Part shown: piece by piece, positions 3,304 through 59,301 of the stretch
How positions within the stretch are numbered: position 1 is the stretch's first letter
How the letters are laid out: every line of letters begins with the position of its first letter
Source of the DNA: an uncultured delta proteobacterium
GTDB lineage: Bacteria; Desulfobacterota; Binatia; UBA9968
Assembly (NCBI GenBank): GCA_963745035.1
Contig: CAVUVW010000019.1
Coordinates: 1-64,000 of the forward strand
Reading direction: 5' to 3'
DNA: 64,000 nt
The notes under the pieces: generated by a model
Told to the model about the DNA's origin: nothing
The model's database searches: none
The model's input: the letters and a program-made list of their open reading frames with translations, nothing else
Translations under genes and position numbers: made by a program

Positions 3304-4848
3304 TTACTGGGCCACTAAACTGAACTTCTCCTGAATCTCTTTCTGTCCTGGCCGCCGCACGACGACGGTCACGTCCCATTGTCCGGCCATCGCGAGCATC
3401 GTTTTCGTCTCGTAGAAACCATCCTTTGACAGCTTGCCTTCTCCTTTGGAAGGAACCATGCCGGGCATCGCCATGTTGAAGACAAAAGAGACCTGCGCAT
3501 CCTTGATCAGCTGTCCGGCTTTGTCGGTAACTTTTAGGCGAATGACATTCTCGCCCGCCTTCGGCTTCTCAGGCTGAGTAAGCAGCGTGAGCGTCAGATC
3601 CTGAACTTTCTTTTCCTGGCGCCCGGCTTTGGCCGCGGCTTGTGTTTCCATCCCCTTCATATCGGCGTGCCCCGCCATCCCCGCCATTGAGCCCATCGCT
3701 TCCTTGAGCCGGCTTTCCGAATCGAGCAGAAAGCCTGCGCTCGCAAGGATGCGCTCTCCGGGAGAGAGTCCCGCTAGAACTTCGTAGTATCCGTCGAACT
3801 TGTTACCGATCTTTACCTCGGCCGGCTCGAACCGACCCTCTCCTTTGTCGAGAAAGACGACCTTTCTCAGGCCCGAGTCCAAAACGGCTTCATCGGGCAC
3901 AGCCAACTTGCGGCCCGCGTTGATTTCTATTTCGGCGTTGGCATACATCTCCGGTCTCAAAATGAAGTCGCGATTTGAAAATTCCAACCGAACTTTCGCT
4001 GTTCGCGTCTTTTCGTCGAGAACCGGGGAGATCCATGACACTTTGCCGATGAAATCCCGCGCTGGATAGTAGGCGAGTTTGATCGTCGCCTTCTGTCCAA
4101 CCCGTATGTGAGCCAGCTCGTACTCATAGATATCCGCGTTGACCCACACAGTTGATAAATCGGCGATCGTGTAAAGCTCCTTATCCGGCATCACTCGCAT
4201 TCCCTGAAGAGCGTCTTTCTTGAGCACAAAGCCGCCGATCGGCGAATAAAACGTAAGATTTCGTTTAGACTTCCCGGTTTTCTCCAAATCGTTGATCTGT
4301 TCTTCGGAAATATCCCAAAGACTAAGGCGGCGGTGTGCCGATTCTAAAAGCGCGTCAGATCCGGCGCTGATCTCTTTTATAGAGCTCGATCCGAGTGTTT
4401 GTTTCGCTTTCAGAGCCAGAAGATATTCTTCTTGTGTCGCGACCAAGTCCGGGCTGTAGAGTGTAAACAGAGGCTGTCCCTGGCTCACGAGAGTCCCGGT
4501 GTAATTCACCAGGAGTTTTTCGATCCACCCTTCAACTTTGCTGAAGACTTGAGCGACCCGCGTCTCGTCATATGTGACGATGCCAACCGTCCGAATTGTT
4601 TGGATCATCGGGCGAACCTCGGCGGTTGCTGTTCGTATGCCGACCAGTTGCTGCCTTTCAGGACTGACGTTGACTCCGGTCGAGCTCATGTTATGGCCTG
4701 GCATGGATTGGTTGCCGGCCGCCGCTCCCGTATCACCGTGATCGGATGACGCGCGATTCGCTTTTGGACTGCTCTGTCCCCGCCAATAGCCAATCGCAAA
4801 TACTCCCGCGAATACAATCAGAGCGCCCAGAATCTTTAGCATCTTCAT
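3304..4848 (-). CDS. cusB: CusB-type periplasmic adaptor with extra C-terminal YtkA/FixH-like domain
   Basis: GWIEKL, YSPDLVATQEEYL, PEMYA, FLLDSES; tail with MAMPGM and MAGQWDVTV. Confidence 0.9.
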   Translation of the reverse strand: MKMLKILGALIVFAGVFAIGYWRGQSSPKANRASSDHGDTGAAAGNQSMPGHNMSSTGVNVSPERQQLVGIRTATAEVRPMIQTIRTVGIVTYDETRVAQVFSKVEGWIEKLLVNYTGTLVSQGQPLFTLYSPDLVATQEEYLLALKAKQTLGSSSIKEISAGSDALLESAHRRLSLWDISEEQINDLEKTGKSKRNLTFYSPIGGFVLKKDALQGMRVMPDKELYTIADLSTVWVNADIYEYELAHIRVGQKATIKLAYYPARDFIGKVSWISPVLDEKTRTAKVRLEFSNRDFILRPEMYANAEIEINAGRKLAVPDEAVLDSGLRKVVFLDKGEGRFEPAEVKIGNKFDGYYEVLAGLSPGERILASAGFLLDSESRLKEAMGSMAGMAGHADMKGMETQAAAKAGRQEKKVQDLTLTLLTQPEKPKAGENVIRLKVTDKAGQLIKDAQVSFVFNMAMPGMVPSKGEGKLSKDGFYETKTMLAMAGQWDVTVVVRRPGQKEIQEKFSLVAQ

Positions 4849-4888: not shown

Positions 4889-6163
4889 TTACTGCAAGTC
4901 CCGACCCACCGCGCGCTCGAGATCCGCTAGGTTTTGCAAAACGCTCGCGGTGGCCTTGTAGTATCCCATGCGCGCCTCCCGCAGAGCTCGCTGAGCCTCG
5001 AGCAGATTCAAGAACTCCGCGCGCCCAGTCTGATAAGCCGAGAGCGCGGATCTGAAGGAAAGCTCGGCTTGGGACAAAAGGCCTTCGCGGTATAACTGAA
5101 GGGATCGCTTGGCAGCCTGAACTCTGGCTTGCGACTCGCCAACCTGTTTGACGGTCATGTTTCGCATCGCCTCCCGGTTAGCCCTGGCGGCGCGGATCTC
5201 GGCCAGACTTTCTTCGACTTCGTAGTTGCGTCTGCCGGCAGTCCAGGGGGAAAAGGGAATTGTGATATTGATCATGGCGCCATATCGGTCCTTCTTCATT
5301 TCCATTGGCATGCGCATATAATCCCAGCCGAGCATAAAGTCGGGGTATTTTCGGTTGCGGTCAGCCAACTCGTACATGCTTTCCGCCCGCTCGATCTCCC
5401 GTTCCCTCCCTTGCAGCTCCGGACGGCTGGCCAACGCCAAATCGTCGAGCGTAGGAGCATCGAGCGCACCGTCGGGCAGCGTGAGATCGGCGGCGATCTG
5501 AACCGGCGTCCGCGGCGGTCGATACATGGCGGTGTTCAGCTTCACGGTGGCGACCGTGATTTCTTCTTCCGCAACAATTAATTGATTCAAAACCTGGCTT
5601 TGCTCCAACTGCGCCTTGAAAACATCCTGCTGCGCCACTTGTCCGACCCGGTAGCGCGCCTCGGTAGCGCCGATGACAACGCGCACGATCTCCAGCTGCT
5701 CGCGGAGAATCTCAACGGAGCGTTGCGCCATGAAAAGATCGGCGTAGGACATCTTGATCATCGCTATGATTTCGCGCTCCTTGGCGCGAAGCTCCTGCTC
5801 GGCGATGTTTATTTCGCGCTGGGCGATCTTCTCCTTGAGACCAAGCTTGCCAAAAAAAGGAACCATCTGGCGAATCCCGATCGAGTTCGTATCCGCCTGA
5901 TTGAGGCTGGTCGGGTTTGAGAGTGGCACCCCGCCGAGCTGGAACGCAATCTGCGGATCCTCCAGATAAGGCACTTGCTTGGCTTTCGCTTCCATGGCGC
6001 GGAGCCTGTGCTGGAGCTGTTGAATCTCGGGGTTTTTTTTCAGCGCTTGCTTGACTGCTCCGGCGAGAGTCAGAGGTGCCTCGGAGGCGAAAGCCGCCGC
6101 GGCAAGCTGAAAGACAAGCAATGGCGCGAGCGCCACTCTGCAGCTGAATAGGACCTTACACAT
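4889..6163 (-). CDS. TolC-family outer membrane factor (CusC-like)
   Basis: 424 aa, signal peptide, NPEI, helical OEP repeats, AYQTG..FLNLLEAQR; first gene of the cus operon; SD GGAGGAG. Confidence 0.9.
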   Translation of the reverse strand: MCKVLFSCRVALAPLLVFQLAAAAFASEAPLTLAGAVKQALKKNPEIQQLQHRLRAMEAKAKQVPYLEDPQIAFQLGGVPLSNPTSLNQADTNSIGIRQMVPFFGKLGLKEKIAQREINIAEQELRAKEREIIAMIKMSYADLFMAQRSVEILREQLEIVRVVIGATEARYRVGQVAQQDVFKAQLEQSQVLNQLIVAEEEITVATVKLNTAMYRPPRTPVQIAADLTLPDGALDAPTLDDLALASRPELQGREREIERAESMYELADRNRKYPDFMLGWDYMRMPMEMKKDRYGAMINITIPFSPWTAGRRNYEVEESLAEIRAARANREAMRNMTVKQVGESQARVQAAKRSLQLYREGLLSQAELSFRSALSAYQTGRAEFLNLLEAQRALREARMGYYKATASVLQNLADLERAVGRDLQ

Positions 6164-6314
6164 CGCTCCTCCATCAGATCATCTGCGTGCCAACAATGCA
6201 GTGGGCACATCAGAGAACGGCGCTGCCAATCCGGCAGCGCGCACGAATACGAAAACGCCGTCCGCTCGGTCGAAGAGCTGCGCAGGGCGGCGCCGGCCAA
6301 AAGGAGGAAAATCT

Positions 6315-6665
6315 CTAGATGCGAAGATTAGGCTTGAACGAAGCGATTGGAGGGCCGGCCGCAGACAAGTGTATGATTCTCCGCCCGGGCAAGAGATCAA
6401 ATGCGGACGGCGACAGGTGATGAGAAGCCAAGATCCATTGTAGACTCAAGCTGTAGACGAATTCCCCCGTCGGGGGCGGCAGAGACTGGAAAAAGGCCGT
6501 GCGGCAATCGGACTCGGTCTTTGGCTTATCGCCGGTACAGTCATGTGGCTCACGCGCTTCGGCTGCTTGCGCTGCGAACACCGGCAACAAGCGCCCGGGG
6601 CATATCGCACAAAGAGCGTAGATCACAAATAGCACTATAGAAATGTACTTATATCTAGGTCTCAT
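6315..6665 (-). CDS. Putative regulatory leader protein (hydrophobic N-term, CxxC, ends GPP...LRI*)
   Basis: 116 aa; LCAICPG, PHDC..SDC, AAGPPIASFKPNLRI-TAG; lies between a sigma70 promoter and cusC. Confidence 0.7.
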   Translation of the reverse strand: MRPRYKYISIVLFVIYALCAICPGRLLPVFAAQAAEAREPHDCTGDKPKTESDCRTAFFQSLPPPTGEFVYSLSLQWILASHHLSPSAFDLLPGRRIIHLSAAGPPIASFKPNLRI

Positions 6666-6680
6666 ATTCTCTTTGCCGCA

Positions 6681-6709
6681 ACTCTAGGGCGCTGATACTT
6701 TGATGTCAA
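6681..6709 (-). promoter_or_regulatory. Sigma70-type promoter for leader-cusCBA
   Basis: Minus strand TTGACA-17 nt-TAGAGT just upstream of the ATG at 6665. Confidence 0.65.
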
Positions 6710-6780
6710 CACGAAACTCGTATGCTGTTGTCAGGCGCATTTATTGCGCCCCTTAAAACAAAAAACAAGGAGGTAGTGTT

Positions 6781-7144
6781 ATGTCTCACCAGGCCGATCC
6801 TACCGTATCGATCATGACCGATTGCCACGACATTTGCCTTCAAACCCTGTCTTACTGTTTGGACAAAGGCGGCGACCATGGGCGGACGGGCATATTACAC
6901 TATTGATTGAGTGTGCCGAGATCTGCCGGACCGCGGCAAACTTCATGCTGCGCAATTCCGAGCACCATGCCCGGGTTTGTGGAGTCTGCGCCGACGTTTG
7001 CGACCGCTGTGCCGAAGATTGCGAGCGAGTGGCAGTGGGCGACGAGATGATGCAGCAATGCGCTGAATCTGCCGGTACTGCGTAAACGTTTGCCGGGAAA
7101 TGTCTCGACAGACCGAGCGCCCGCGCCAGGGGTCCGCAGCTTGA
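6781..7144 (+). pseudogene. Four-helix-bundle Cys-rich copper storage protein (DUF326/Csp3-like), two frameshifts
   Basis: SD AAGGAGG then MSHQ..DCHDICLQTLSYC, shift to ECAEICRTAANFMLRNS..CGVCADVCDRCAEDC, shift to ICRYCVNVCREM..TGA. Confidence 0.8.
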
Positions 7145-7233
7145 AACACGTTGCTCCAAGTACGGGCACGGGTATGGGAACCGGTGCCCGACTTTGAAGA
7201 TTCGATCTTGAGTCATCGTGTCGACCGTAAAAA

Positions 7234-7887
7234 TTACGCCTCATTCAGCCGCCGGTGGCCGCCGAAGTGCGGAATGAACGCGGGCGTCGAATCCATATAA
7301 TGCCGATATTTCTCACCGAACTCTCCGAGTACCTCTCTCTCTTCCCGGTGCGCAAGCTTGATGTACATCGTCACAAGAATCGGAAACATCACCAACGTGA
7401 TCAGCGTGGGCCACTGAAAGAGAAATCCAAACATGATCAGAATAAATCCCAGGTATTGCGGATGACGCACATACGCATACGGTCCGGTTGTCGCCAATGT
7501 GTGCGTCCGCTGAGCTTCATAAAGCACTTTCCACGAAGCGGACAAAAGAATGAAACCGCCTAAAATCAAAAGGTTGCTGAGAAGATGTAACGGATCAAAG
7601 TGAGGATCGATCTTCCAGCCGAGCAGCGTGTTCCAGAGATGACCGGCATCGTGAGATAACAAATCCAGATTTGGGTAGCGCTTTATCACCCAGCCGGAAA
7701 TCAAATAGATCGTCAACGGAAAGCCGTACATCTCGACGAAAAGGGCGACGATAAAAGCGGAGAACGCGCTGAAGGAGCGCCAATCACGCTTCGTCTGGGG
7801 CTTCGAGAAGCTAAAAGCGAAAATAATAAAAATCAAAGAATTAATAATCACCAAAGACCAGAGGCCATAAGCCGGTGCGTCCGTCAT
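7234..7887 (-). CDS. Isoprenylcysteine carboxyl methyltransferase (ICMT/PEMT) family membrane protein
   Basis: MTDAPAYGLW, EMYGFPLTIY, TGPYAYVRHPQY, EERE..EFG..Y; ATGA overlap with the upstream gene. Confidence 0.88.
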   Translation of the reverse strand: MTDAPAYGLWSLVIINSLIFIIFAFSFSKPQTKRDWRSFSAFSAFIVALFVEMYGFPLTIYLISGWVIKRYPNLDLLSHDAGHLWNTLLGWKIDPHFDPLHLLSNLLILGGFILLSASWKVLYEAQRTHTLATTGPYAYVRHPQYLGFILIMFGFLFQWPTLITLVMFPILVTMYIKLAHREEREVLGEFGEKYRHYMDSTPAFIPHFGGHRRLNEA

Positions 7888-8126
7888 GTTTTTTCTCCTC
7901 TTCCGCCATGCTTGTGGTTCTCGGAGTGACCTCCATGCCCGCCATGTCCCCCATGAAACATGTGCAAAAGAGGACAAAGAAGCAGCAAAACGTAGGGCAA
8001 GGCGCCAAGCAGATGCGCCTTATGTTCTTCCCAAAGAAAAAATACAGCGATGACCGCAAATCCTATGAATGCAAGACCAGTCCGTGACTTTATCCAATTA
8101 ACGAAGCCCGTTTGTTCCGTCTCCAT
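7884..8126 (-). CDS. DUF2933 family membrane protein
   Basis: EHKAHLLGALPYVLLLLCPLLHMFHGGHGGH motif. Confidence 0.88.
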   Translation of the reverse strand: METEQTGFVNWIKSRTGLAFIGFAVIAVFFLWEEHKAHLLGALPYVLLLLCPLLHMFHGGHGGHGGHSENHKHGGRGEKT

Positions 8127-8170
8127 ATATGTTTCCCCTATTCTCCAACGAGATCCGCCCCAATTACGGG

Positions 8171-8638
8171 CTACATGTCCTGCGTCACCGCACCACTGGA
8201 ATGCTCGGCAGCTACCTGCCGTGCTGATAAGACTCTTGTGAAATCAAAGGCAAAGATCCCGGTGATCATAGCTAAGAAAAAAATCACGGCAGAGAAATTT
8301 CCTGATGCTAGGGACGTTATAGCCGGACCCGGACAATAGCCGGCGATTCCCCAACCCAGGCCGAAGATGACGGATCCTCCAAGCAGACGAGAGTCGATTT
8401 GCGTCCGGCTCGGTATCGAGGTCGCAAACGAGAAACGGGAGGAAGAACGAGCGCGGATCGCTCGATAGAAAAGCGAATGAACCCCGATGGCGCCAAGCAT
8501 TACGAAGGCGAGGCTTGGGTCCCAGTTGCCGGCGACATCGAGAAATCCGATGACCTTGGTTGGCCGGGTCATGCCACCAACGCCGAGGCCCATGGCGAAC
8601 ACAATTCCTGAGATAAACGACACCAGAGTCGACTTCAT
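8171..8638 (-). CDS. YeeE/YedE family sulfur-transport-related protein (second subunit)
   Basis: GMTRPTKVIGFLDVAGNWDPSL, FGLGWGIAGYCPGP. Confidence 0.88.
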   Translation of the reverse strand: MKSTLVSFISGIVFAMGLGVGGMTRPTKVIGFLDVAGNWDPSLAFVMLGAIGVHSLFYRAIRARSSSRFSFATSIPSRTQIDSRLLGGSVIFGLGWGIAGYCPGPAITSLASGNFSAVIFFLAMITGIFAFDFTRVLSARQVAAEHSSGAVTQDM

Positions 8639-9066
8639 ATGATGCCTCCGAGAAGATGATTGATCACATAAACCGCAGCCGCGCCCACCACTAAGAAGAT
8701 CACGGTGGCAACGATCGAGCGGACGGAAAACCGACTGATACCACAGACCCCATGGCCGCTTGTGCAGCCGTTAGCTATACGCGCCCCGAGGCCAACCATG
8801 AAGCCTGCCAAGACAAGGGCAGTTCCAGAGCGAACGATCCCCAAGTCGAATGCCTGAGGCGCAAGCAGCCGGAGTATGAACCCGCCCGTGACCAATCCGC
8901 CGATGAAGGTAGCGCGCCAGAGCGTGTCGTTCTTCTTCACATCGACAAGGCCGCCAACAATCCCGCTGATTCCTGCAATCTTACCGCTGAACAGGAGCAT
9001 CGCTGAGGCACTTAGCCCTATTAAGATTCCTCCCATGAGGGAAGCGATCGGGGTAAACTGTTCCAT
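8635..9066 (-). CDS. YeeE/YedE family protein (first subunit)
   Basis: GKIAGISGI, GCTSGHGVCGISRFS. Confidence 0.88.
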   Translation of the reverse strand: MEQFTPIASLMGGILIGLSASAMLLFSGKIAGISGIVGGLVDVKKNDTLWRATFIGGLVTGGFILRLLAPQAFDLGIVRSGTALVLAGFMVGLGARIANGCTSGHGVCGISRFSVRSIVATVIFLVVGAAAVYVINHLLGGII

Positions 9067-9225
9067 TTCTCATCCTTGTTTTTTATTTTCACTTTCATCG
9101 CCAACGTTCAGAGTTTCCTCCGACAACAAACCAATTATCCCGCCGCCACTACAATCCCCACTGCAAGACCAGAAGCGGAAGCTTTAATTTCCATAAGGCC
9201 TCCTCCTAACGGTCAGAGGTTCGAA

Positions 9226-9552
9226 TCAACTCAGATCTCTTTTCTTGACCTCGAACTCTTCTTTGTTGATCTCGCCGCGGGCGTAGCGCTGTCGCAAAAT
9301 CTCCAGCGCCGAATCGCTACGCCCACCTCGGTCCTGGCTCATGAACCAACGGACGGCGAACACGACGGCTGCAATCACCAGAATCCAGAAAAACAGCATC
9401 ATAAACATCATGCCGATTCCCCAAATGCCGCCCATCCAACCCATCGGGTGCATTCCCCAACCCCAGTCGTAGGGTCGCTCCTGGGCGAAGGCCGATATTG
9501 GAACAAACCAACTCATCGAGATCGCAAATACGATCCTGCGCCAGGTAACCAT
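9226..9552 (-). CDS. SHOCT-domain membrane protein with Gly/Met/Trp-rich linker
   Basis: GWGMHPMGWMGG, TM helix, ALEILRQRYARGEINKEEF. Confidence 0.85.
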   Translation of the reverse strand: MVTWRRIVFAISMSWFVPISAFAQERPYDWGWGMHPMGWMGGIWGIGMMFMMLFFWILVIAAVVFAVRWFMSQDRGGRSDSALEILRQRYARGEINKEEFEVKKRDLS

Positions 9553-9579
9553 GATCCGCCTCCTTTGAAGAGGGACGTG

Positions 9580-10017
9580 TTACTGAGTCTTTTTCATCCC
9601 GCGACCCATGCGTTCCGACATCTGCTTCATCATGCCGGACATATCTCCCATCATCTTGGACATCTCCGACATCTGTTCGGGTGTCATCTTGCCGCTCTCC
9701 ATCATGTGACCCATGTTGCTCATCATGCCCGACATGTCGCCCATCGTACCGCCCATACCTTTCATCTCGTCGCTCTTCATCATGCCCTGGCCCTTCATCA
9801 TCCCCCCCATGCCCTTCTTCATCTCCATCATAGTGCCGTGCATCTCCTTCATCTTGCTCATGTCCATCCCGCCGCCCTGCATCCCTTCGCCTTTCATGGG
9901 CATGCCTTCCTTCATCGGCATCTGTCCTTTCATCGGCATGTCCTTTTTTTCCTGCGCTAGTAAAGGCACAGCAGCGACTGCCGTTGACAACAAAACCGCT
10001 AGAATAATTCTCTTCAT
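9580..10017 (-). CDS. Secreted methionine-rich protein
   Basis: Start MKRIILAVLL after SD AGGAG; signal peptide; about 40 Met in 145 aa. Confidence 0.8.
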   Translation of the reverse strand: MKRIILAVLLSTAVAAVPLLAQEKKDMPMKGQMPMKEGMPMKGEGMQGGGMDMSKMKEMHGTMMEMKKGMGGMMKGQGMMKSDEMKGMGGTMGDMSGMMSNMGHMMESGKMTPEQMSEMSKMMGDMSGMMKQMSERMGRGMKKTQ

Positions 10018-10046
10018 GATATTCTCCTGTTTGATTTTTTCCGTGG

Positions 10047-10457
10047 TCACTCCAAATTCCAAGTAAACGTTCTTTCTTTGACTCCGGCAACGTCCTTAAT
10101 GATGAGCTCAATCCGTTTGGCTCCCGGCGAGAGCTTGGGAAAAGTAACGACGGACTCGCGGTGATGCCCGCCGCCTTTGTTCTCGATCGCCTTGGGGACA
10201 TAACTCTTGCCGGTGTCATCGCGCAGAACGGCGACGGTCTTGATGTCATAGGTATCGAGATTGACCGAGTGCGTGTCGAGCACGACCTGGAATCGCGGAT
10301 CATCGGCGCTCGTTGAACTCAAAAAAGTCACCTTTGCCGTGACACCGCCGCCGGCGACACTTTGCGTTGAGTTGGTTGCTGCCGCCCCGAATGTTTCGCT
10401 ATTGATCAATACGAGCGCGAAAGCGATCGTCGTTGTAAAAAGTCTGAAGACCTTCAT
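10047..10457 (-). CDS. Secreted hypothetical protein with DTHS and GGGHHR motifs
   Basis: 136 aa, SD AGGAGGG, signal peptide, beta-rich. Confidence 0.75.
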   Translation of the reverse strand: MKVFRLFTTTIAFALVLINSETFGAAATNSTQSVAGGGVTAKVTFLSSTSADDPRFQVVLDTHSVNLDTYDIKTVAVLRDDTGKSYVPKAIENKGGGHHRESVVTFPKLSPGAKRIELIIKDVAGVKERTFTWNLE

Positions 10458-10519
10458 GCTCAGTTCCCTCCTAACTAACTAGAACGATCCGAAAAAGTGA
10501 TAGCGGATAGGGGAAAGAG

Positions 10520-10957
10520 CTAAATTCTAAGTCGGGGGATTGAGAGATGTGGTGATAAACGAGGCTTCGCTGATAGCTGGATCGACGCCGGCACGCCGCG
10601 GCCGGTTAAGGCGCTCGCCGTTGCATTTAACAATGCCGCCGGCAAAAACGCGTTTACGACATCATCTTTGGGTACTTCCAGGCGAAAAATCGAAGTTACC
10701 CCTAACCAAAGCTTCAAAAGCGGACTTTCCGTGCAGTGAATTCTTGACGACGGCTTCTGGCGGAGTTCAACGGCAACGGCAGGAGATGAGTACGCGCGAT
10801 TGCTTGTCGCTAAGGCCGACGTCGTCTGAACTGGATGGATGTGGTCCGCCGACTCACTGTCGCTCAAGCAATGCTGCAATGCCCACGCGACTCCCGCGTT
10901 AGTGAGGATGATCGAAAGGCCGAGGATCGCAATGATTTTCGCTGATGAAAGGTTCAT
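10520..10957 (-). CDS. Putative regulatory leader protein (ends LRI*)
   Basis: MNLSSAKIIAILGLSIILTNAGVAWALQHC..DHIH..RIHC..SPHLSIPRLRI-TAG; start uncertain (ORF track gives 11008). Confidence 0.65.
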   Translation of the reverse strand: MNLSSAKIIAILGLSIILTNAGVAWALQHCLSDSESADHIHPVQTTSALATSNRAYSSPAVAVELRQKPSSRIHCTESPLLKLWLGVTSIFRLEVPKDDVVNAFLPAALLNATASALTGRGVPASIQLSAKPRLSPHLSIPRLRI

Positions 10958-11158
10958 TTCATGACCCCACTCTCGCGCATAAGCGCAACGTATATGCCAC
11001 GTCGTCAAAACGTAAAAAAGTCAGGTAAATACATCAGCCGAGCCGCCATAACTTCCCAAAGGTGAGAGTAACCTCGTCTTTAGTTCGCAAACGTGACAAC
11101 TGGCTATCTCATTCCTTACTCTGCCTCTCGACCAAGCTGACGCTTGAAACGGGGTTAA

Positions 11159-11365
11159 TTACAGCGTGCCTTTTCTTTCTTGCACTGGTGGACACGGTAC
11201 GTCGCCGTAGGAACAGAACACACAGCAATGCCCCTCATTGGCCTTGAGTACTTGGTGACAGCCATTGCATTCATAAAAGAACTGGCAATAGTCGGTCGGC
11301 ATCGTTAAATATTCCGTACGACCGCAGTGAGGGCAGGTAAGTGTACTTGCGACAATGATTTGCAT
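11159..11365 (-). CDS. GDCCVxC-domain small Cys-rich protein
   Basis: TCPHCG..MPTDYCQFFYECNGC..GHCCVFCSYGDVPCPP. Confidence 0.88.
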   Translation of the reverse strand: MQIIVASTLTCPHCGRTEYLTMPTDYCQFFYECNGCHQVLKANEGHCCVFCSYGDVPCPPVQERKGTL

Positions 11366-11436
11366 GGCGACTCCGTTCCTGGTGTGGTGACTGACGATTT
11401 TGTAACGTAACTCAATCCTGACTCCGGCAACCCGGA

Positions 11437-12855
11437 TCAGAGTCCGGGGTAGACCTCGATGCCATCCCGGCGGAGATCCTCATCGGTTGCTGTGAGCGCG
11501 ACGGTTCCGGGTGGGTGTTTATACCAGCCCGGGTCTTCGTCGTAGCTCTGCAATTGATCGCGTACTTTTATGATCGTGAACAGCCCGCCCATCGAGATAT
11601 AATCGCCGAACGGACCCGATGCACCTTTCATCGAAATCGTGTTGCGCGGGTAAGGCATAACCTCGGCCATCTTGCCCATATCCATGCCGGTGTGACCCAT
11701 GGTCATATACGCCGGCAGCAGAGGCCGGAGTTTTTCGTCCAGTCCCTGCGGATCGACGCCGACCATGTTGGGAAAATCATGTCCCATCTGGTTCATCACA
11801 TGGTGTGTCATGTGACAGTGAAACGCCCAGTCGCCTGGCGCATCCGAGATAAACTCGATATTGCGCGTTTGGCCGACGCCGACGAGAACCGTCGATTCCG
11901 GCCATTGCGCGGATAGCGGGATTTCCTCTCCGTCAGTTGCTGTCACCCGGAAATGATGTCCATGAATATGCATCGGGTGGTGGTCGGTCGCTCCCAAGTT
12001 GCCCAAACGAATGCGCACCTTGTCGCCCGTCTTGCAGACCAATGGCGCCGTCGAGGGAAAGACTTTGCCGTTGATCGTGAGAACGTTGAAGTCCGTCATC
12101 TCCAGTGTATTCGGACGAGACGTTCCCGCCGGAATCGCCCACTCGCTGATCATCAACGAGAAGTCCCGATCGACGTGATACTCCGGCCGCGGATTTCTCG
12201 GATGGATGATAAACATGCCGATCATCCCCATGCCCATCTGGGTCATCTCGTCATGATGCGAGTGGAACATCTGCGTGCCGTACTGGCGCAAGGTGAACTC
12301 ATATTTCGCCGTTTCGCCGGATTTGATGTGTGGCTGAGTGAGCCCCCCGACGCCGTCCATGCCATTGGGAAGATTGAAACCGTGCCAGTGAATGGATGTA
12401 GCTACCTTTAGGCGATTGGTCACATAGATGCGCACCCTCTCGCCTTCGACGGCTTCGATGTGAGTGCTGTTCACACGGCCGTTGAAGCCCCAACACTTGA
12501 CGCGCAGACCGGCGTCGAACTGGTGATCGACTTCTTCGGCAATCAGGTGAAAGACTTTGACGCCGTCCATGATCTTGAACGGGAGAGCCGCTCCATTCGG
12601 AACGACGACTGGTTTGTAACCTCTACCCGGAAGGACGGGCGCTAGCGGTTTAACATCGACAGGGCCGCCGCTATAACTCTTTTCCCAGTAGGGTCGATCG
12701 CCTCCACGTTGCGAGTTGTAGCCTCTGAACGGTCTGTAATCTGCCCCGGAGCCTCCGTGGTTTGTGGCATGTGCTTCCCTCTGGGACAACGCGACACCTG
12801 CAAGAGTGGCAGCGCCGATTCCTAGGATTTCGCGCCGGGATATTTTTTTGCTCAT
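11437..12855 (-). CDS. Tat-exported multicopper oxidase
   Basis: SRREIL Tat motif; IHWHG, FHSH, HPMHIHGH, FHCHMTHH copper motifs. Confidence 0.93.
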   Translation of the reverse strand: MSKKISRREILGIGAATLAGVALSQREAHATNHGGSGADYRPFRGYNSQRGGDRPYWEKSYSGGPVDVKPLAPVLPGRGYKPVVVPNGAALPFKIMDGVKVFHLIAEEVDHQFDAGLRVKCWGFNGRVNSTHIEAVEGERVRIYVTNRLKVATSIHWHGFNLPNGMDGVGGLTQPHIKSGETAKYEFTLRQYGTQMFHSHHDEMTQMGMGMIGMFIIHPRNPRPEYHVDRDFSLMISEWAIPAGTSRPNTLEMTDFNVLTINGKVFPSTAPLVCKTGDKVRIRLGNLGATDHHPMHIHGHHFRVTATDGEEIPLSAQWPESTVLVGVGQTRNIEFISDAPGDWAFHCHMTHHVMNQMGHDFPNMVGVDPQGLDEKLRPLLPAYMTMGHTGMDMGKMAEVMPYPRNTISMKGASGPFGDYISMGGLFTIIKVRDQLQSYDEDPGWYKHPPGTVALTATDEDLRRDGIEVYPGL

Positions 12856-12870
12856 GTTTGCTCCTTCGAA

Positions 12871-14292
12871 CTAATGCCCCGCAGTTCCGGTTGGCCGATT
12901 GGGCTCGGCCGAAGCCGCAGCCCGGATTGCGCCATTAGGGCTTGGCAATCGTCCAGCTAAAATTTGCCCGATGTCTGCTCGTGCGAGCCAGTAATCACGC
13001 AGCGCTTCGACGTAGCCGACGGCGGTTTGAATCTGCTGCTCACGGGCGCGCAAAAGCCGAAAGGGTCCGAGCTGCATGGCGTTGTAGTGGAGCTGGGTTT
13101 CATTGACGATCCGCTCATGCAGTGGCAAGAGAATGTCGCGATAATAGCTGGCGCGGTCGCTGGCTCCCTCCAACCGGTCGCGTGCTGCACGCGCTTGCCC
13201 CCTGATTCGAACTCCGAGGGAGTAATACTCCAGTTGAGAACGCCGCAGCTCAGCCGCGGTTCGTCCAAAGGCCGCTTGGCCTTGGTCGAACAGGGGAAGC
13301 ATGAAATCGATTCTCGGTCCGACTGCCCACGAACCATCGCTTCGTTCAGCTTCGGGTCCGGCGCTGAATTCCGGAATAAGGGCAGTCCATCTGGTTAATC
13401 CCAATTGCTCTCCCGAACTTACGATGCGCTGTTTCGCTTGGACGAGATCCAAGCTCCGCTCGAGAGAAACATGTTCGATGTCGGTTGTGTCGAGCGGCTG
13501 ATTAGGGAGTTCGGGCAGACGACCAGCGCTTTGCCATTGGGTTTGCGGTCCCCAAACTCCCATCAGGGCGTTCAACTCTTCGCGGCTCTGACGTACTGAA
13601 ACTTCGGCGGCCCTGAGCGCCAACTTGCCGGCTTCTAACTGAGCCCTTTCAGAGAAGTAGTCGAGATCCGAGAGATTGCCGGCTTGATAGAGTCGGTGCG
13701 CTATTTCGAACGAGGCCGCGAGAGCCTGAGCGATAGTCTGACGCAGTTCGAGTATCTGCTCGTCGGCCTCGTAGGTGTAAAAGGCTTTGCGTACCCGCCC
13801 TGCGAGATCCAGCACGGCGCCAGTCACGCGGGTCTTCGTTTCTTCAAATCGAGCCGCCGCTACACGTTTGCGCAACGGGATGTATAAGAGATTCAAGAAA
13901 TTCATCGCTGCTCCGAGCTCAAGGTCCGGTCGGCCTCCGCCGGAAACTGGAAATTTGACCGCGGCGTCGAAAATGGGATTGCTCAGAAGACCTGCCTGCA
14001 CGACGTCGGCCTGGGCGACCCCGAGATCGGAGTACACGGCTTGTAAGTCGCGATTATTGAGCAGAGCTACTTGCACGGCCGTGTCGGCTGTCAGTTTTTG
14101 CTTTAGCAAAGCACCGATTTTTTCTGCTGCTTGTTTGTCCAGCTCACTGCCGGCGTTCCACGCAATCTCCAGCGGGCGCCGCTGTTCTACCGCGGCCTTT
14201 ACATCTTGGAATCCTGCATCCAGGCTCATTGACACGCAGCCGCTCAACACCGAGCCGATAGTGCAGAACCCGACAATCTTTGCCAGAATCAT
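12871..14292 (-). CDS. TolC-family lipoprotein associated with the copper oxidase
   Basis: LSGC lipobox, AVQVALLNNRDLQ, AGLLSNP, YNAMQ, LRDYWLAR. Confidence 0.88.
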   Translation of the reverse strand: MILAKIVGFCTIGSVLSGCVSMSLDAGFQDVKAAVEQRRPLEIAWNAGSELDKQAAEKIGALLKQKLTADTAVQVALLNNRDLQAVYSDLGVAQADVVQAGLLSNPIFDAAVKFPVSGGGRPDLELGAAMNFLNLLYIPLRKRVAAARFEETKTRVTGAVLDLAGRVRKAFYTYEADEQILELRQTIAQALAASFEIAHRLYQAGNLSDLDYFSERAQLEAGKLALRAAEVSVRQSREELNALMGVWGPQTQWQSAGRLPELPNQPLDTTDIEHVSLERSLDLVQAKQRIVSSGEQLGLTRWTALIPEFSAGPEAERSDGSWAVGPRIDFMLPLFDQGQAAFGRTAAELRRSQLEYYSLGVRIRGQARAARDRLEGASDRASYYRDILLPLHERIVNETQLHYNAMQLGPFRLLRAREQQIQTAVGYVEALRDYWLARADIGQILAGRLPSPNGAIRAAASAEPNRPTGTAGH

Positions 14293-14311
14293 GTGTGGCT
14301 CTCCCGCGCGG

Positions 14312-14769
14312 TCATTTCATTCTTTCGATCTTGACGATGGTTTTTTTCGGTACGTCAATGGTGAAGCGAACCTGATCGCCGGCTTTGAGGCCTTCAAGTA
14401 AAGAGGACGGTTCGACCCGATAGCCCATCGTCATCGCATCCATGAAGCCTTTGATCTCGCCGTGTTCCACCACAAGCTGACTTGCGCTCGGAACCGTCGC
14501 GACCACTTTGCCTTCGCCCAGTCACGGTTTTCTGTCCGTTCGACTCAGCCGCCGGATGATGGCCTTCATGTCCGCTTTGGGCGGCTGAGCAGCGAGGCGG
14601 CCGGAACATCTTCCCGGCTATATGCGAGGGTTTTCGATTGCGGCAGTGGAGGTGTAGCGATAGCCTGCGCATTCGCAGGATGGTTCAAACTCAGCGGCTC
14701 AACTGATAGGGTGCGCACCCAGCGAGACCGATAAAGACCATTCCGAACAAGAATTCGTTTTATTTTCAT
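14312..14769 (-). CDS. CusF-like copper-binding lipoprotein, frameshifted in this assembly
   Basis: Fragments in different frames: MKIKRILV, GMVFIGLAGC (lipobox), LNHPANAQA, SGHEGHH, GEGKVVATVP..EHGEIKGFMDAMTMGY; SD AGGAG. Confidence 0.72.
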
Positions 14770-14802
14770 CTTCTACTCCTTTCCGGCGTTTATATCCGTG
14801 CT

Positions 14803-14828
14803 GACGCAGAAGCCGGCATACAATTACA
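14803..14828 (-). promoter_or_regulatory. Candidate ECF promoter for the cusF-like/tolC/oxidase operon
   Basis: TGTAAT-16 nt-CGTC immediately after the ECF gene. Confidence 0.45.
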
Positions 14829-14838
14829 CCGCGTCACT

Positions 14839-15384
14839 TTAGCCGGCGGTTTCGGCGTGTGCGCCGCAGTGGCAGTCCAAACAGCCATGCCTGGCGCAGA
14901 CACGACAGTTTTCCTCCAGCCGTTCTTTGAGCTGTTGACGGGCTCGGTGCAGCCGCACGTTGAGATTGTTCTTGGTGATACGGAGTTTTGCAGCAACGGC
15001 TTGCGGATCTCCTTCGTTCAGGTCGAGTTCGCGGATCAGCTCAGCATATTGCGGTGTCATGGTGGGCAGGAGCCGTTCCATGCACGCGCAGACTACGCGT
15101 TCTTCGTCGACATCGGGCGTCGAATTGACCTCCCGTCCGAAATCTTCAAGCGCACGGCCGCGCGCATCGCGCCGACGATAGAGATCGATTATCGTGCGGC
15201 GCAGGATTCTATAGAACCACGCCTTCGCGCTTTCCTGGTCGCGAAGTTGATCCGCCGCTTTGAGGGCCTTGAGTAGACTTTCTTGGACTGCATCGGCGGC
15301 GAGATCCGGATCGCCGAGACGCTTGCGAGCAAAGCGGACAAACTCATTGACGTTTTCCAATAAGAGAGATTCGATTTTTTCCAT
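14839..15384 (-). CDS. ECF sigma factor with Cys-rich C-terminus (CorE/SigZ-like)
   Basis: DAVQESLLK, AWFYRILR, CAC linker, RLHRAR, CRVCARHGCLDCHC tail; no adjacent anti-sigma. Confidence 0.9.
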   Translation of the reverse strand: MEKIESLLLENVNEFVRFARKRLGDPDLAADAVQESLLKALKAADQLRDQESAKAWFYRILRRTIIDLYRRRDARGRALEDFGREVNSTPDVDEERVVCACMERLLPTMTPQYAELIRELDLNEGDPQAVAAKLRITKNNLNVRLHRARQQLKERLEENCRVCARHGCLDCHCGAHAETAG

Positions 15385-15386
15385 TA

Positions 15387-16088
15387 TTACTTCCGCTGTG
15401 TTGTCGGTTGAGGCTTCGTGATCTTGCTGATCACACGTTTTTCTGTGTCGATAGTGAAGTGTACCGTGTCACCGGGTTTGACAGTTTTGAGCATCGCCGG
15501 GGAACTGACTTTGTAACCCATGGTCATGGCCTCCATGAATCCCTTTATCTCGCCATGTGTTAAAACGATTTCACCATTTTCCGGAACCACCGCGACGACC
15601 TGACCCTGCGCGCTGACTGTTTTAGGCACGCCTTTGGGTTTAAGCGACGCCACATATGCCGAAACATCGATCAATTCGCGCACCGTCATCTTCTCGGTAA
15701 AGTCGGTCATCGGAGATTTACCGTCCGATTCCCGGTAAGCCTTAGGAACGACGGCATTGGGATTGAGGATTGATTCCGCGAAGAACTCGACGGGGTGCAT
15801 CGGCCCCATTTGACTCAGCTCGGGCGCGCTTTCCGTTGGACCCGGAAACCCTTCGCCGCGAACCTCGTGGCAGTAGTAACATTCGAATTTTTCGAAGACC
15901 GTTTTGCCTTTGGCAGGGTCACCTTTGGGCATCATGAAGCGCCACCCATGAGGATGATGGGAGTCGATGGACCGCGGCGCCGGCGCGGAGGATACCTTGC
16001 CGGTGTGTTTAGAAGCTGAGGAGGGTGCGATCAAAAACAGAGAACTCGTTACAATGCATGCGAGCGTGAGTAAAACTCGAGCGATCAT
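15387..16088 (-). CDS. Cytochrome c / CusF-like fusion protein
   Basis: Start MIARVLL at 16088 (SD GAGAGG); GDPAKGK..CYYCH heme motif, ESILNP; C-terminal THGEIKGFMEAMTMGY. Confidence 0.82.
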   Translation of the reverse strand: MIARVLLTLACIVTSSLFLIAPSSASKHTGKVSSAPAPRSIDSHHPHGWRFMMPKGDPAKGKTVFEKFECYYCHEVRGEGFPGPTESAPELSQMGPMHPVEFFAESILNPNAVVPKAYRESDGKSPMTDFTEKMTVRELIDVSAYVASLKPKGVPKTVSAQGQVVAVVPENGEIVLTHGEIKGFMEAMTMGYKVSSPAMLKTVKPGDTVHFTIDTEKRVISKITKPQPTTQRK

Positions 16089-16195
16089 AGTAGAACCTCT
16101 CGCCGATCGACGGCCGTAACGGTCTTGGCCGGTCAAGGGTCGACACGTTGCAGAGCTGACGAACGAAAAAATACGACGAAGCAGCGCGAGCGGTT

Positions 16196-16578
16196 CTAGA
16201 TACGTAGCACCGAGAGGAAGAGATACGGAGGAGTGTTGTTGGAACGGGAGTAACCGGGCGGACCGTGGAGCGAACGATACAACTGGCATGCGCTGGAACT
16301 GATCGGGGAATTTGGGAACATCGACGAGGGTGATGCGTTCAACGCGATCGTTCTTGCTTTGCGAAAATGATCGCGCTAAGGAGAAATACATTCAGCGTCG
16401 GACAGTGAATGACTGCATTGTCCTCGTGCTTATGGTGTGATTCGGAGTGATGATCGTGGCCATGGGCGGCGCTGCCGAATTTGGCTGGAAGAAAGGACTG
16501 CTCGCAGCTTGCCCATGCCGAAGCGGCACCGGCAAGAATTACGAATAGACAGGAAGTGATGGCAATCAGGCGTTTCAT
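16196..16578 (-). CDS. Putative regulatory leader protein (His-rich, ends HGPP...LRI*), frameshifted
   Basis: MKRLIAITSCLFVILAGAASAWASC..HGHDHHSESHHKHED..IHCP; another frame reads YRSLHGPPGYSRSNNTPPYLFLSVLRI-TAG ending at 16196. Confidence 0.65.
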
Positions 16579-16673
16579 CTACGTATCGAATCCTGCCTTA
16601 AGAATATCTATGTTTTCAAGACAATAGGCATCGACGTGTGTGTCCTAGCTGCAACCGCTTCGACTGAAGAGAG

Positions 16674-16895
16674 TCAACCTCGCGCCTGCCGTCGAAAATA
16701 CTCATACAAGTGTTGAACACCGCCGCAGCGCGGATGAGGCCGGTGTCGTCGTCTTTGTGCGACAATGCGATGCCGTCGAATCAATCTGGCAATCGAGAGT
16801 TTTCGGCTGGAATTTGCGAGCTTGAGAGCTCGGCGATGAGAGTAAGATCGACATCACGCCGCCGCTTTTCAATCACCACGTTCCTGGGAATAGCA
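16674..16895 (-). pseudogene. Degraded 3' remnant of a second chrB
   Basis: Near-copy of 17966-18200 (CGTCGAAAATACTC.TACAAGT, GTCGTCGTCTTTGTGCGACA) with indels. Confidence 0.8.
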
Positions 16896-16936
16896 GCAGT
16901 ACGCGGCCGTTGTGTTCCGGGTGTGTATTGCAGGCT

Positions 16937-17854
16937 TTAATGCCGCGGCTCTTGCATCATTTCTGGAAATTTGGACACCATTGCCTCACTCGGCATTCCC
17001 TTCAGTCTGACGCCCAACTCCTGTGACAACATCACGGCATTGGCGGCGGCATTGGCCCTCGCGTGATTGTTGTAAACTCCGAATACCGCCTTCACTGAGG
17101 GGTTGCGCGCGGCCGTTTTGATCTTTTGCGCGTGTTGCTGGATCTCTTCGCGGGAGTAGAGGTAGTCATATCTCTCCCAGCTTTCCTTGGCATGCCACCA
17201 TGCCTTTGCGTTACGGCCGTGCGCGCGAAAGTAGACGACATCGCCAATGGTTTCGGTTTCCTGCCGGATGGAGGTCTTGAACTTCGGCTCGTCAATGAGA
17301 ACTTCGCTCGCCCGGTATTCCTCAAGCAGCCGAGCGGTGTCGTCGCGATTCTCGCTCCAGCTCTTGTGACGCAGCTCGACGACCTTGGGGTAGTCGTAAA
17401 ACCACTTAAGGGTTTTCTCCAGCTCTTCGAGACTCTCGGGGCTATAATGAAAACCTGTCGGATACTGCAAGAGAAGAGCGCCCAACTTGCCGGCGTCGGC
17501 TAGAGGCAGAATGCCCGCGCGGAATTCATCGAAGTCCTTCTGCTGCGGCGGCTCCCATGCCTCATCGGATTTTTTCCGGCTGATTTTTTTTGGATGCGTG
17601 AACTTTTGCCAGAGCTTGATGGCGAACTTGAAATCGTCTGGTGTTTTCGCCGCCCAGGCACTGGTGATCTTGGCGGACGGCGGCCGGTAGAACGTCTGAT
17701 TGATCTCGCAGGTGTTGAAAATCTGCGAGAAATACTCGAGCTCATCAAAGCCCTTGGTTTTGCGCTCAGGATAGAACGCGCCATACCACCCGGCGGGAGG
17801 CTTGCCGGGATACGAAAAGCCCGACGTGCCGATTCTTATTACGCTAGCCGGCAT
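16937..17854 (-). CDS. DUF72 family protein
   Basis: IRIGTSGFSY, EINQTFY, FTH, ELRHKSW, YFRAHGRN, YDYLYS, NNH. Confidence 0.9.
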   Translation of the reverse strand: MPASVIRIGTSGFSYPGKPPAGWYGAFYPERKTKGFDELEYFSQIFNTCEINQTFYRPPSAKITSAWAAKTPDDFKFAIKLWQKFTHPKKISRKKSDEAWEPPQQKDFDEFRAGILPLADAGKLGALLLQYPTGFHYSPESLEELEKTLKWFYDYPKVVELRHKSWSENRDDTARLLEEYRASEVLIDEPKFKTSIRQETETIGDVVYFRAHGRNAKAWWHAKESWERYDYLYSREEIQQHAQKIKTAARNPSVKAVFGVYNNHARANAAANAVMLSQELGVRLKGMPSEAMVSKFPEMMQEPRH

Positions 17855-17965: not shown

Positions 17966-18949
17966 TCAACCGCGGCTTTTTCGTCGAAAATACTCGTACA
18001 AGTCATCGAAGACCGCCGCGGCGCGGGTAAGGCGGGCGTCGTCGTCTTTGTGCGACATTGCGATACCGTCGATCAACCTGGCGATTCCGGAGGTTTCGGG
18101 GCGTTGGAATTTTGCGTCCTTGAGATCGATGTCGTGGACGATCTCGGCGATGGGAGCGAGACCGGCGTCGTGCACGCCGGTTCTGCTGAGAAGCACTTCC
18201 AAGGAGCAGGAGTCTCCCTCGTGCGTAAAATCGGCCTCGAACATATCGAAGGAAATCTCATCGGCTGCGCGCTTGTATCCTTTAGCGGGAACGAACTTAA
18301 ATTTGGCATCGGCATCGATGAAGCGGCGCACGGCCCAGGCGGTGGCCATACGATCGACGTGGATGCCTTTGCGAGTAACCCAGGTTTTTCCTTTGAGGTT
18401 TGGCGTCATGACGGTGCGGCTTGCAACCGACTTCGCGCGACTCTTGGGGCCGTCGACGCGTGCCTGGAGCTCGGCAACCAATCCTTCCGCAGTCATGCGG
18501 GCGGAAGCGCCGAAGTAGTCGATATTCAGAATCTCTCCCAAACGCTTCTTGAGCTTCATGGTCTCGGCGCCAAAGCGGATCGTCTGCTCGTCGTTTAGGG
18601 CGGCCTTGCGCGGTAGACTTTTCGACACGGCTCGGGCGGCTTCGGCAATTTGTTGGTAATCGGAGTCGCGCGCGGCTTGAAAGAGCGCCTCGACCTGCTC
18701 GTTCGACAAGCCATCCACAAAATGAGCTTCGCAAACAGTGGCGTCGCCGCCGCCGTCCGTGATCTCGCGGCTGAGCCATTGGAAGTCTTCCAGCGTTTGA
18801 TCGCTTTTGGGCAAGACGTAGACGGAATTTTTGATGGCGATCGCTCCAAGCCGCTGTAGCCGGCGCCAGATCTTCACTCGCAGGTAGTTAGGTCGCGGCG
18901 GAATCTGATGAATCAGTAGGAGCCATCGCGCATCGGATAGGTTTTGCAT
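17966..18949 (-). CDS. chrB: Chromate-responsive regulator ChrB
   Basis: WLLLIHQIP..RVKIWRRL; WVTRKGIHVDRMATAW..RFID, FTHEGDSCS, IVHDID. Confidence 0.9.
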   Translation of the reverse strand: MQNLSDARWLLLIHQIPPRPNYLRVKIWRRLQRLGAIAIKNSVYVLPKSDQTLEDFQWLSREITDGGGDATVCEAHFVDGLSNEQVEALFQAARDSDYQQIAEAARAVSKSLPRKAALNDEQTIRFGAETMKLKKRLGEILNIDYFGASARMTAEGLVAELQARVDGPKSRAKSVASRTVMTPNLKGKTWVTRKGIHVDRMATAWAVRRFIDADAKFKFVPAKGYKRAADEISFDMFEADFTHEGDSCSLEVLLSRTGVHDAGLAPIAEIVHDIDLKDAKFQRPETSGIARLIDGIAMSHKDDDARLTRAAAVFDDLYEYFRRKSRG

Positions 18950-59157: not shown

Positions 59158-59301
59158 GGCGTTGAACTGCAAGATTCGAGAGGTAGCAAGAGGGCGCGCC
59201 GCCCGCAAGGCGAAATGCCGCGACGATACGCGAATTTGACAATAGGAAGGGCCTCCGCTAATTCTTTTAGAATTCAACGCAAACGCAACGCAGGAGGAAC
59301 G

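Follow-up and report, generated by a model that had tools for sequence, protein, structure and literature searches.

A 64-kb stretch of contig CAVUVW010000019.1 (assembly GCA_963745035.1, an uncultured delta proteobacterium; 28 contigs, 7.4 Mb, 92.6% completeness), referred to here as the window, raises the question of what stands directly in front of its gene for a cytochrome c-CusF fusion protein. A sequence-only reading had noticed a frame that is absent from the track of open reading frames (ORFs) and ends in Leu-Arg-Ile (LRI) and TAG, at 16196-16198. It had been taken as a third LRI leader, hidden by a frameshift, with a stem from its stop codon to the next Shine-Dalgarno (SD) sequence acting as an attenuator. 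The frame and its stop codon are present, on the minus strand as are all features of this locus. The gene to which they belong, called copy C below, is a conserved gene for an exported protein of about 126 amino acids (aa) and no short leader; we have little doubt of its identity or of its family assignment. The fuller reading is that the gene for an exported, His/Cys-rich and largely unstructured protein of about 126 aa leads a set of copper-resistance genes, that this gene is broken here by artefact, and that the protein belongs to a CutF-like branch. In our judgement this reading as a whole stands at about even odds. The question is mostly resolved: the hidden gene is real, assembly errors probably account for its frame breaks, and the stem offers no conserved evidence for an attenuator.

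The gene was recovered from three frames. An ATG at 16578 starts a 79-codon ORF that begins MKRLIAITSCLFVILAGAASAWASC, passes through a His-rich stretch and continues as ...VIHCPTLNVFLL before a TGA stop at 16341-16339. The stop-to-stop frame at 16196-16375 (minus strand) terminates in ...HGPPGYSRSNNTPPYLFLSVLRI. A search with the 79-aa piece found 23 intact proteins of 125-139 aa, with 59% mean column identity in their alignment, and all of them end in the tail that is found in the window's other frame. The nearest homologue, P0009, is 78% identical over the 79-aa query and reads ...IHCPTLNVFLLTATFSPTKNDRVERITLVDVFKCPDQFSACQLFRSLHGPPGYSRSNNTPPYLFLSVLRI; the middle part of its sequence, SFSQSKNDRVERITLVDVPKFPDQF, was found in the third frame of the window. 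When intact P0009 was used as a tblastn query, three pieces were aligned (frame -1, 16578-16372; frame -2, 16385-16296; frame -3, 16306-16199), which together tile residues 1-125 of P0009 at 73-89% identity with no in-frame stops inside the pieces. With three pieces in three frames, two +1 shifts are needed to restore the gene. The claim that a third LRI gene is hidden here is upheld, except that one frameshift is not enough. The His-rich N-terminus does join the LRI tail, and both shift sites fall inside the interval 16280-16400 that had been pointed out for correction.

To extend the family, 1.84 billion representatives were searched exhaustively with its profile, which gave 107 cluster representatives at E ≤ 0.001; nearly all are about 125-135 aa long and terminate at the final profile position. 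Its architecture consists of a predicted signal peptide, an invariant Cys, a His-rich stretch, an HC motif, GPPG and the tail [YH]LxLSVLRI. The consensus of this tail, [YH]L-x-[LF]-S-V-[LF]-R-I, is near-invariant, with the stop codon immediately after it, and is kept even where members have lost GPPG. The tails of 128 family proteins end in LRI (76 proteins), FRI (16), or IRI (7). Across 101 aligned sequences Cys25 never varies, while H57, C58, R124, and I125 are conserved in at least 90%. Each of the 109 full-length members contains at least six His; HC is present in 104 and a length below 150 aa in 96. The codons of the tail differ at third positions across the family, which argues that selection acts on the peptide. 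The copy C protein was matched in 29 of 90 genomes of the same family-level group. A metagenome scan with P0009 added one locus (L032, 58% identity), and a scan of genome contigs with P0010, which with P0009 makes up the two closest intact relatives, gave no match. Neither the string LSVLRI nor a description of an LRI-tail family was found in the literature searched, which excluded supplements and most subscription journals.

The predicted protein has little structure. AlphaFold2, supplied with the 101-sequence alignment, placed confidently only an N-terminal helix (residues 2-28; mean pLDDT 61.9, pTM 0.28). This hydrophobic helix follows MKR, and a conserved ...AWA stands ahead of the invariant Cys, making the N-terminus a candidate signal peptide. 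A lipoprotein reading of the Cys had been prompted by genes for prolipoprotein diacylglyceryl transferase (lgt) found upstream in some loci and by an Atlas cluster named 'Lipoprotein'. Asp, Asn, or Glu next to the Cys does not fit a lipobox; many members carry one of these residues there (judged by eye), ...WA is conserved, and the reading was dropped. The family, of about 107 clusters, is without a curated model. Another Atlas cluster carries the name 'DUF2946 domain-containing protein' (score 0.94), which is a lead only. None of four window pieces matched PF11162 (DUF2946) at E ≤ 1, and a genome-wide scan with the same model hit two places on another contig, the window not being among them. 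The same genome does have one canonical DUF2946 gene that clears the Pfam cut-off, is His-rich and ends in ...RAPPLA (L047, G000:C14:344031-344381), so that both tail types coexist there.

Among described systems CutF comes closest. In Rhodobacter capsulatus, the DUF2946-like CutF is described as carrying a Sec signal peptide, a CxxxC motif, and a C-terminus rich in proline, and as acting only in cis, requiring translation, being degraded on export, and being undetectable in cells (PMC9973294). When it binds copper its own co-translational export is delayed and a stem-loop hiding the cutO SD opens (PMC9973294). Copper-induced stalling at the proline motif has been reported to override elongation factor P (bioRxiv 10.1101/2025.02.05.636593, a 2025 preprint). 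The general idea that translation of an upstream ORF unmasks the next SD, which the sequence-only reading had put forward, matches this published mechanism (PMC9973294; bioRxiv 10.1101/2025.02.05.636593). CutF-like proteins have been delimited as shorter than 150 aa, with a signal peptide, two consecutive prolines (PP) among the final 15 residues, and a gene downstream that lies on their strand; they occur upstream of OEP, CusA, CusB, and CusF genes, and their modes of action differ (PMC9973294).

On the points checked, copy C agrees with this description in its length, its Cys/His motif, PP near its end, and a CusF-domain gene that starts on the same strand 107 nt after its stop. The window copy ends NTPPYLFLSVLRI, with PP inside the last 15 residues; across the full-length members PP lies within the last 30 residues in 92 of 109. 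Both CutF and copy C are below 150 aa, have a Sec-type N-terminus (a predicted one in copy C), a Cys/His motif, and a conserved proline-containing motif at the C-terminus, and both lie directly upstream of metal-homeostasis genes (CusF, OEP, multicopper oxidase) on the same strand. A predicted RNA helix masks the next SD in the window, and the copy C product is predicted to be unstructured; that only its signal helix is predicted to fold agrees with the degradation of CutF on export. There are differences as well. Copy C ends in PPYLxLSVLRI-stop instead of a proline-rich stretch, its family motif is C...H-rich...HC and not CxxxC, its DUF2946 match is below threshold, and the SD-shielding helix is not conserved. 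The host differs too: its nearest PPK1 relatives are labelled Candidatus Binatia, delta proteobacterium, or Thermodesulfobacteriota metagenome-assembled genomes, whereas the set in PMC9973294 consists mainly of Pseudomonadota and Bacteroidota. A divergent branch of the CutF-like/DUF2946-like proteins is the best reading of the family. Since most members lack the terminal PP and the Pfam threshold is never reached, it is filed as a variant of the CutF-like kind rather than as a proven member of DUF2946.

The position of the gene is kept. A set of 28 loci was compared (27 loci and the window), in which the next gene on the same strand encodes a cytochrome c-CusF fusion in 23 cases, an OEP-family outer-membrane factor in three, and another product in two; a CusF-domain or OEP gene is thus immediately downstream in 26 of 28. 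The choice of stop codon is also unusual. The small gene ends in TAG at 20 loci, in TAA at seven, and in TGA at one, compared with 36 TGA, 24 TAA, and 17 TAG among the remaining ORFs of 150 aa or more at these loci (n = 77; Fisher p 1.6e-5, the loci being related). We regard the avoidance of TGA as a new lead. The 42 nt after the stop are rich in pyrimidines (mean 0.66; 0.50 across the loci). At eight of the 28 loci (L007, L011, L015-L019, L021; the window is not among them) a G+C hairpin with a T-run behind it begins no more than 8 nt from the stop, compared with one of 74 long ORFs in the control. These hairpins may be regulated or plain terminators. Most of the loci that carry them belong to the type that has lgt upstream, and the hairpin may therefore just end a transcript of lgt and the small gene.

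The same evidence bears on a different explanation, in which copy C encodes an ordinary trans-acting accessory protein of the periplasm (a metal buffer, a chaperone, or a CzcI-like modulator) and the tail would be a signal for partner binding or degradation, with no role in cis. A signal peptide, an invariant Cys, an HC pair, and a His-rich stretch are what would be expected of a periplasmic metal binder, and many loci have lgt close upstream and a terminator-like hairpin after the gene. CzcI of Cupriavidus metallidurans, in addition, is found in the same position before czcCBA and is counted as CutF-like without a C-terminal proline motif (PMC9973294). A folded binder, however, would not usually be conserved most strongly in its last 9-12 residues or have a biased stop codon, no fold was predicted despite the 101-sequence alignment, and the place directly upstream of CusF-domain or OEP genes is retained at nearly all loci. 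We consider a purely trans-acting protein rather unlikely on this evidence.

A second alternative concerns the state of the gene: copy C may be a true pseudogene, its decay in this strain having followed acquisition of the island, and the stem a relic or chance. Logan contigs from four public runs (four studies; X1, X5, X6, X8) were aligned to 15900-16800. They are not reads of the source assembly, and none of the sequencing runs found by the run search holds more than 0.22 of the window's sampled words; the indels and substitutions given here are among the differences listed, with 59 substitutions and 12 indels beyond these. At the first frame break (Table 1) one base, 16370 or 16372, is missing from the contigs of all three covering runs (X1, X5, X6), X8 having no cover. 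At the second, one base (16293 or 16295) is missing in all four, and the X6 contig (record 13) matches the window exactly over 16272-16367 save for that single-base gap. Nearer the start of the gene, the X5, X6, and X8 contigs have a G inserted behind 16470 and lack one base at 16489. The homologues read SF.Q.NSAA.AH at this site, and the indel pair of the relatives restores the usual family pattern.

Other genes of the window are broken in a similar manner. The gene for polyphosphate kinase 1, ppk1 (30365-32417, minus strand), is split into 31761-32417, covering model positions 2-160, and 30365-31888, covering 170-671. An M20-family peptidase gene (57705-59865, minus strand) is split into overlapping frames, 57763-59865 (model 13-276) and 57705-58409 (280-505). 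It follows that assembly indels are the likely cause of the breaks in copy C, and we hold these to be probably artefacts. The family-wide genome search showed the same small gene damaged in two other genomes of few contigs, once in two frames (G087:C18:15209-15594; L009, L031) and once with an internal TAG (G045:C32:504643-505038; L017). Decay would account for the indels that set copy C apart from its relatives, four or more within 383 nt. It would also agree with the two further LRI-tail genes in the window, which could render copy C redundant, and with a rearranged junction marked by a ChrB fragment and by divergence of the relatives' contigs. The identity of the pieces to P0009 with their frames open, the near-exact X6 contig, and the frame splits in unrelated genes speak against decay, and we judge a pseudogene unlikely.

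The stem itself was found as claimed. Its 13-nt arms, separated by 82 nt, are complementary at 12 of 13 positions, and the SD is buried in the 3′ arm, which stops two bases short of the ATG at 16088-16086. The helix closes the minimum-free-energy fold predicted for the intergenic RNA (-39.1 kcal/mol). Its duplex energy, -20.3 kcal/mol, was reached by 0.3% of control windows from the same locus, and by 0.47% of 2782 and 1.1% of 3763 control windows across the 64 kb. Inverted repeats of 12/13 with loops of 3-120 nt formed 13 clusters in the window and 5-15 in ten first-order Markov simulations, and stronger pairing (-27.5 and -22.3) was found at two of the ten other junctions between adjacent long ORFs of the window. 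One base of the 5′ arm, 16194, is absent from the contigs of three of the four runs (X1, X5, X6), and the duplex energy without it is -15.6. The stem is only moderately beyond chance.

Nor is the stem kept among homologs, whose lack of it had been named beforehand as grounds for rejecting the attenuator model. When the stop window was 20 nt, each of the 18 homologous loci fell within the controls (fractions 0.17-0.99). With 48 nt, only the window and L029 (0.010) were below 0.05 among 19 loci, the median fraction being 0.58, and L029 is the only one of the 19 homologous loci to beat 95% of controls. Stop-SD pairing was negative at the metagenome locus L032 (0.26-0.34), modest at another LRI-tail gene of the window, copy B (0.017, 0.048), and at background at the remaining one, copy A (0.25, 0.58). 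No terminator-like site was found on the gene strand in 15900-17000 and no Rfam family at E ≤ 1 in 5900-17000. In the transcriptional sense, therefore, the term attenuator is unsupported.

A leader peptide whose stop codon is linked to the next SD by a conserved regulatory stem is accordingly very unlikely. The stem had been presented as the clearest structural evidence for an attenuator; being neither conserved nor exceptional, and weakened by the indel at 16194, it cannot carry that model. What stands of the model is that the stem exists and closes the predicted fold, that copy B and L029 pair somewhat above controls, and that a ribosome at the stop codon could free the SD. The footprint of a ribosome on mRNA is of known size and at the stop codon would span the whole 5′ arm, which would then be covered. 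Against it are the homologous loci, no better than controls in 18 of 18 cases (20 nt) and 17 of 18 (48 nt), the background pairing of copy A, the stronger junctions elsewhere, and a 5′ arm that is polymorphic among near relatives. With about 126 conserved codons and no terminator-like site, copy C also lacks the marks of a classical attenuation leader. The 12/13 stem is a feature of the window copy, or chance, and not a conserved part of the system. The earlier observation was largely right and its interpretation only partly so. Programmed +1 frameshifting is rejected because the relatives are without the extra bases and unrelated genes of the window are split as well.

Several results weigh against the reading of copy C as a CutF-like protein gene fronting copper genes. 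No Pfam or NCBIfam model reaches threshold on the copy C pieces or on copies A and B. DUF2946, the Pfam family that matches the most members, does so for 10 of 101 at E ≤ 1 (best E 0.0012), always below threshold, and PP is within the last 15 residues of only 26 of the 109 full-length members. SD shielding is at or below the control level in 18 of 19 homologous loci overall. In at least seven of the 28 loci (L005, L013, L015, L016, L018, L019, L021) a same-strand lgt gene reaches its end some 17-46 nt before the small gene begins, as read from the locus sequences and confirmed with Pfam in two cases, so the small gene is not always the first in its row. Together with the hairpin this means that the small gene could end an lgt transcript instead of leading the copper genes. 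The CorE-like sigma factor described below would already supply the operon with metal control. In the source strain the indels may be genuine, given that the run contigs are not its reads. Finally, the 28 loci are mutually related and their counts are not independent, and three of them (L005, L006, L028) come from unpublished genomes, on which counts of 28 or 19 partly rest. Dropping these three alters no conclusion, as in each the small gene ends in TAG next to a cytochrome c-CusF gene and the stem test is negative.

Within the CutF-like reading, a cis mechanism is suggested by analogy; it is the likeliest mechanism on offer, and we put it at somewhat less than even odds. The nascent chain would be exported co-translationally; periplasmic metal binding to the Cys/His segment would slow release of the C-terminal tail from the ribosome; and a ribosome lingering at the end of the ORF would alter the fate of the downstream RNA, by unmasking the SD or overriding a terminator. 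The stem of the window has the right geometry for unmasking of the CutF type. CruR of Bordetella pertussis, a copper-responsive DUF2946 upstream ORF with a 162-nt spacer that works by Rho-dependent termination and not by masking an SD (PMC9973294), resembles copy C in its broad family and long spacer, and its mode of termination is relevant to the eight hairpin loci and the pyrimidine-rich tract after the stop. It differs in that it is described as independent of its signal sequence and as controlling a TonB-dependent transporter (PMC9973294). SecM, MifM, and VemP have an exported or membrane-targeted chain, a C-terminal arrest motif, and a downstream SD in a stem-loop that is opened by the stalled ribosome (PMC7897499, PMC10987492), and copy C would resemble them in these respects. 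They regulate Sec/YidC components and sense export, whereas the genes downstream in the window are for copper resistance and arrest here is hypothetical.

TnaC and SpeFL are arrest peptides of the termination stage; these cytoplasmic leaders are short and respond to small molecules inside the ribosomal tunnel. The likeness to copy C, a lead only, is in conservation up to the last residue before the stop and in a biased stop codon with TGA avoided. It is conceivable, though we consider it doubtful, that [YH]LxLSVLRI followed by UAG or UAA is an arrest module acting at termination, dependent on release factor 1 and attached to a His/Cys metal sensor that is exported during its translation. Binding of metal outside the membrane would keep the ribosome on the stop codon and the first 12-15 nt downstream single-stranded; the bound ribosome would free a masked SD (window, copy B, L029) or block a terminator hairpin (8 of 28 loci).

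Table 1. Features of the LRI-tail loci in the window (positions in the 64-kb stretch).
Feature	Position	Strand	Basis and remarks
LRI-tail gene copy A, 116 aa	6315..6665	-	ORFs; one full-length homologue
LRI-tail gene copy B, 145 aa	10520..10957	-	8 homologues, 64-94% identity, tail ...LSPHLLIPRLRI kept
Extracytoplasmic function (ECF) sigma factor	14839..15384	-	Sigma70_r2 and r4_2; CAC linker, Cys-rich C-terminal extension
Exported cytochrome c + CusF-domain fusion, 233 aa	15387..16088	-	Pfam Cytochrom_C 2.6e-8, CusF_Ec 1.4e-17
Stem 3′ arm, SD GAGAGG inside at 16101-16096	16091..16103	-	Sequence, fold
Stem 5′ arm, stop codon + 10 nt	16186..16198	-	Sequence
LRI-tail gene copy C, ~126 codons if intact, three frames here	16196..16578	-	TAG 16198-16196; ORFs, 23 intact homologues, tblastn
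Second +1 frame break (extra base vs relatives)	16293..16300	-	Frame changes from -2 to -3 within 16306-16296
First +1 frame break (extra base vs relatives)	16370..16376	-	Frame changes from -1 to -2 within 16385-16372
Compensating indel pair, ~6 codons changed, window ...FLPAKFGSAAH...	16470..16489	-	Run contigs, homologues

The sigma factor behind the fusion gene carries CAC in the linker (...ERVVCACMERL...) and ...CRVCARHGCLDCHC... in its C-terminal extension. Metal-sensing ECF sigma factors of the CorE-like kind are recognized by CXC in the linker between sigma2 and sigma4 and by a Cys-rich C-terminal extension (PMC8999054), and both features are present here. No anti-sigma gene is evident alongside, and the protein is a candidate metal-sensing regulator of the operon. 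It is followed by a CusF-like ORF, an outer-membrane factor gene, and a multicopper oxidase gene, the last two named by eye. The CusF-like ORF (14312-14506, minus strand; 64 aa, GTG start) has no signal peptide; in the roughly 330 nt upstream of it (within 14312-14838) no ORF with a family match was found, and the gene may be frame-broken. A possible ECF-type promoter, GAAC-N17-CGTA, was seen by eye just past the copy C stop in the window and was dropped, its spacing not being kept in the nearest loci. On the other side of copy C, 24 residues encoded within 16616-16765 (minus strand) are 63% identical to the C-terminal end of a ChrB-family protein (17966-18949) and look like a gene fragment. 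The contigs of the relatives part from the window at 16607 and 16649, suggesting a rearranged junction just upstream of copy C.

The other two LRI-tail genes are more distant. Copy B is weakly linked to the copy C family (hhalign probability 16%, E 0.0016; hidden Markov model E 9e-4, a single comparison), and some loci are matched by both the B and C profiles (e.g., G072:C1:1444xx, E 4.7e-11 and 1.3e-5). None of the eight copy B homologues has PP in its last 15 residues. For copy A no profile similarity to B or C was detected, the common features being the architecture and the ...NLRI end only; its one full-length homologue (62% identity) keeps ...AGPPIAxxKPNLRI. Copy A lies upstream of an efflux trio named by eye as outer-membrane factor, adaptor, and RND-type pump genes (4889-6163, 3304-4848, 90-3290), and thus resembles CzcI, which likewise stands ahead of an RND efflux set; this likeness is one of position. 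Two genes downstream of copy B, a 160-aa protein (9580-10062, minus strand) with a signal-like N-terminus and Met/Gly/Lys-rich repeats of the MxxM type gave no family match and is possibly a methionine-rich Cu(I) binder.

For annotation, these results mean that the assembly carries frame-breaking indels in several genes. At the level of the family, their value lies in an architecture and position like those of CutF combined with a different, near-invariant tail and the avoidance of TGA, which would provide a short and testable motif; the tail and the stop-codon bias are the parts worth experiment. Control of the CutF type is a recent and little-explored coupling of periplasmic metal to translation, and a branch with another stalling candidate would show its generality. 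If the arrest module proved true, it would be a second, sequence-unrelated solution to transmembrane metal sensing of the CutF type, in Binatia-like soil bacteria.

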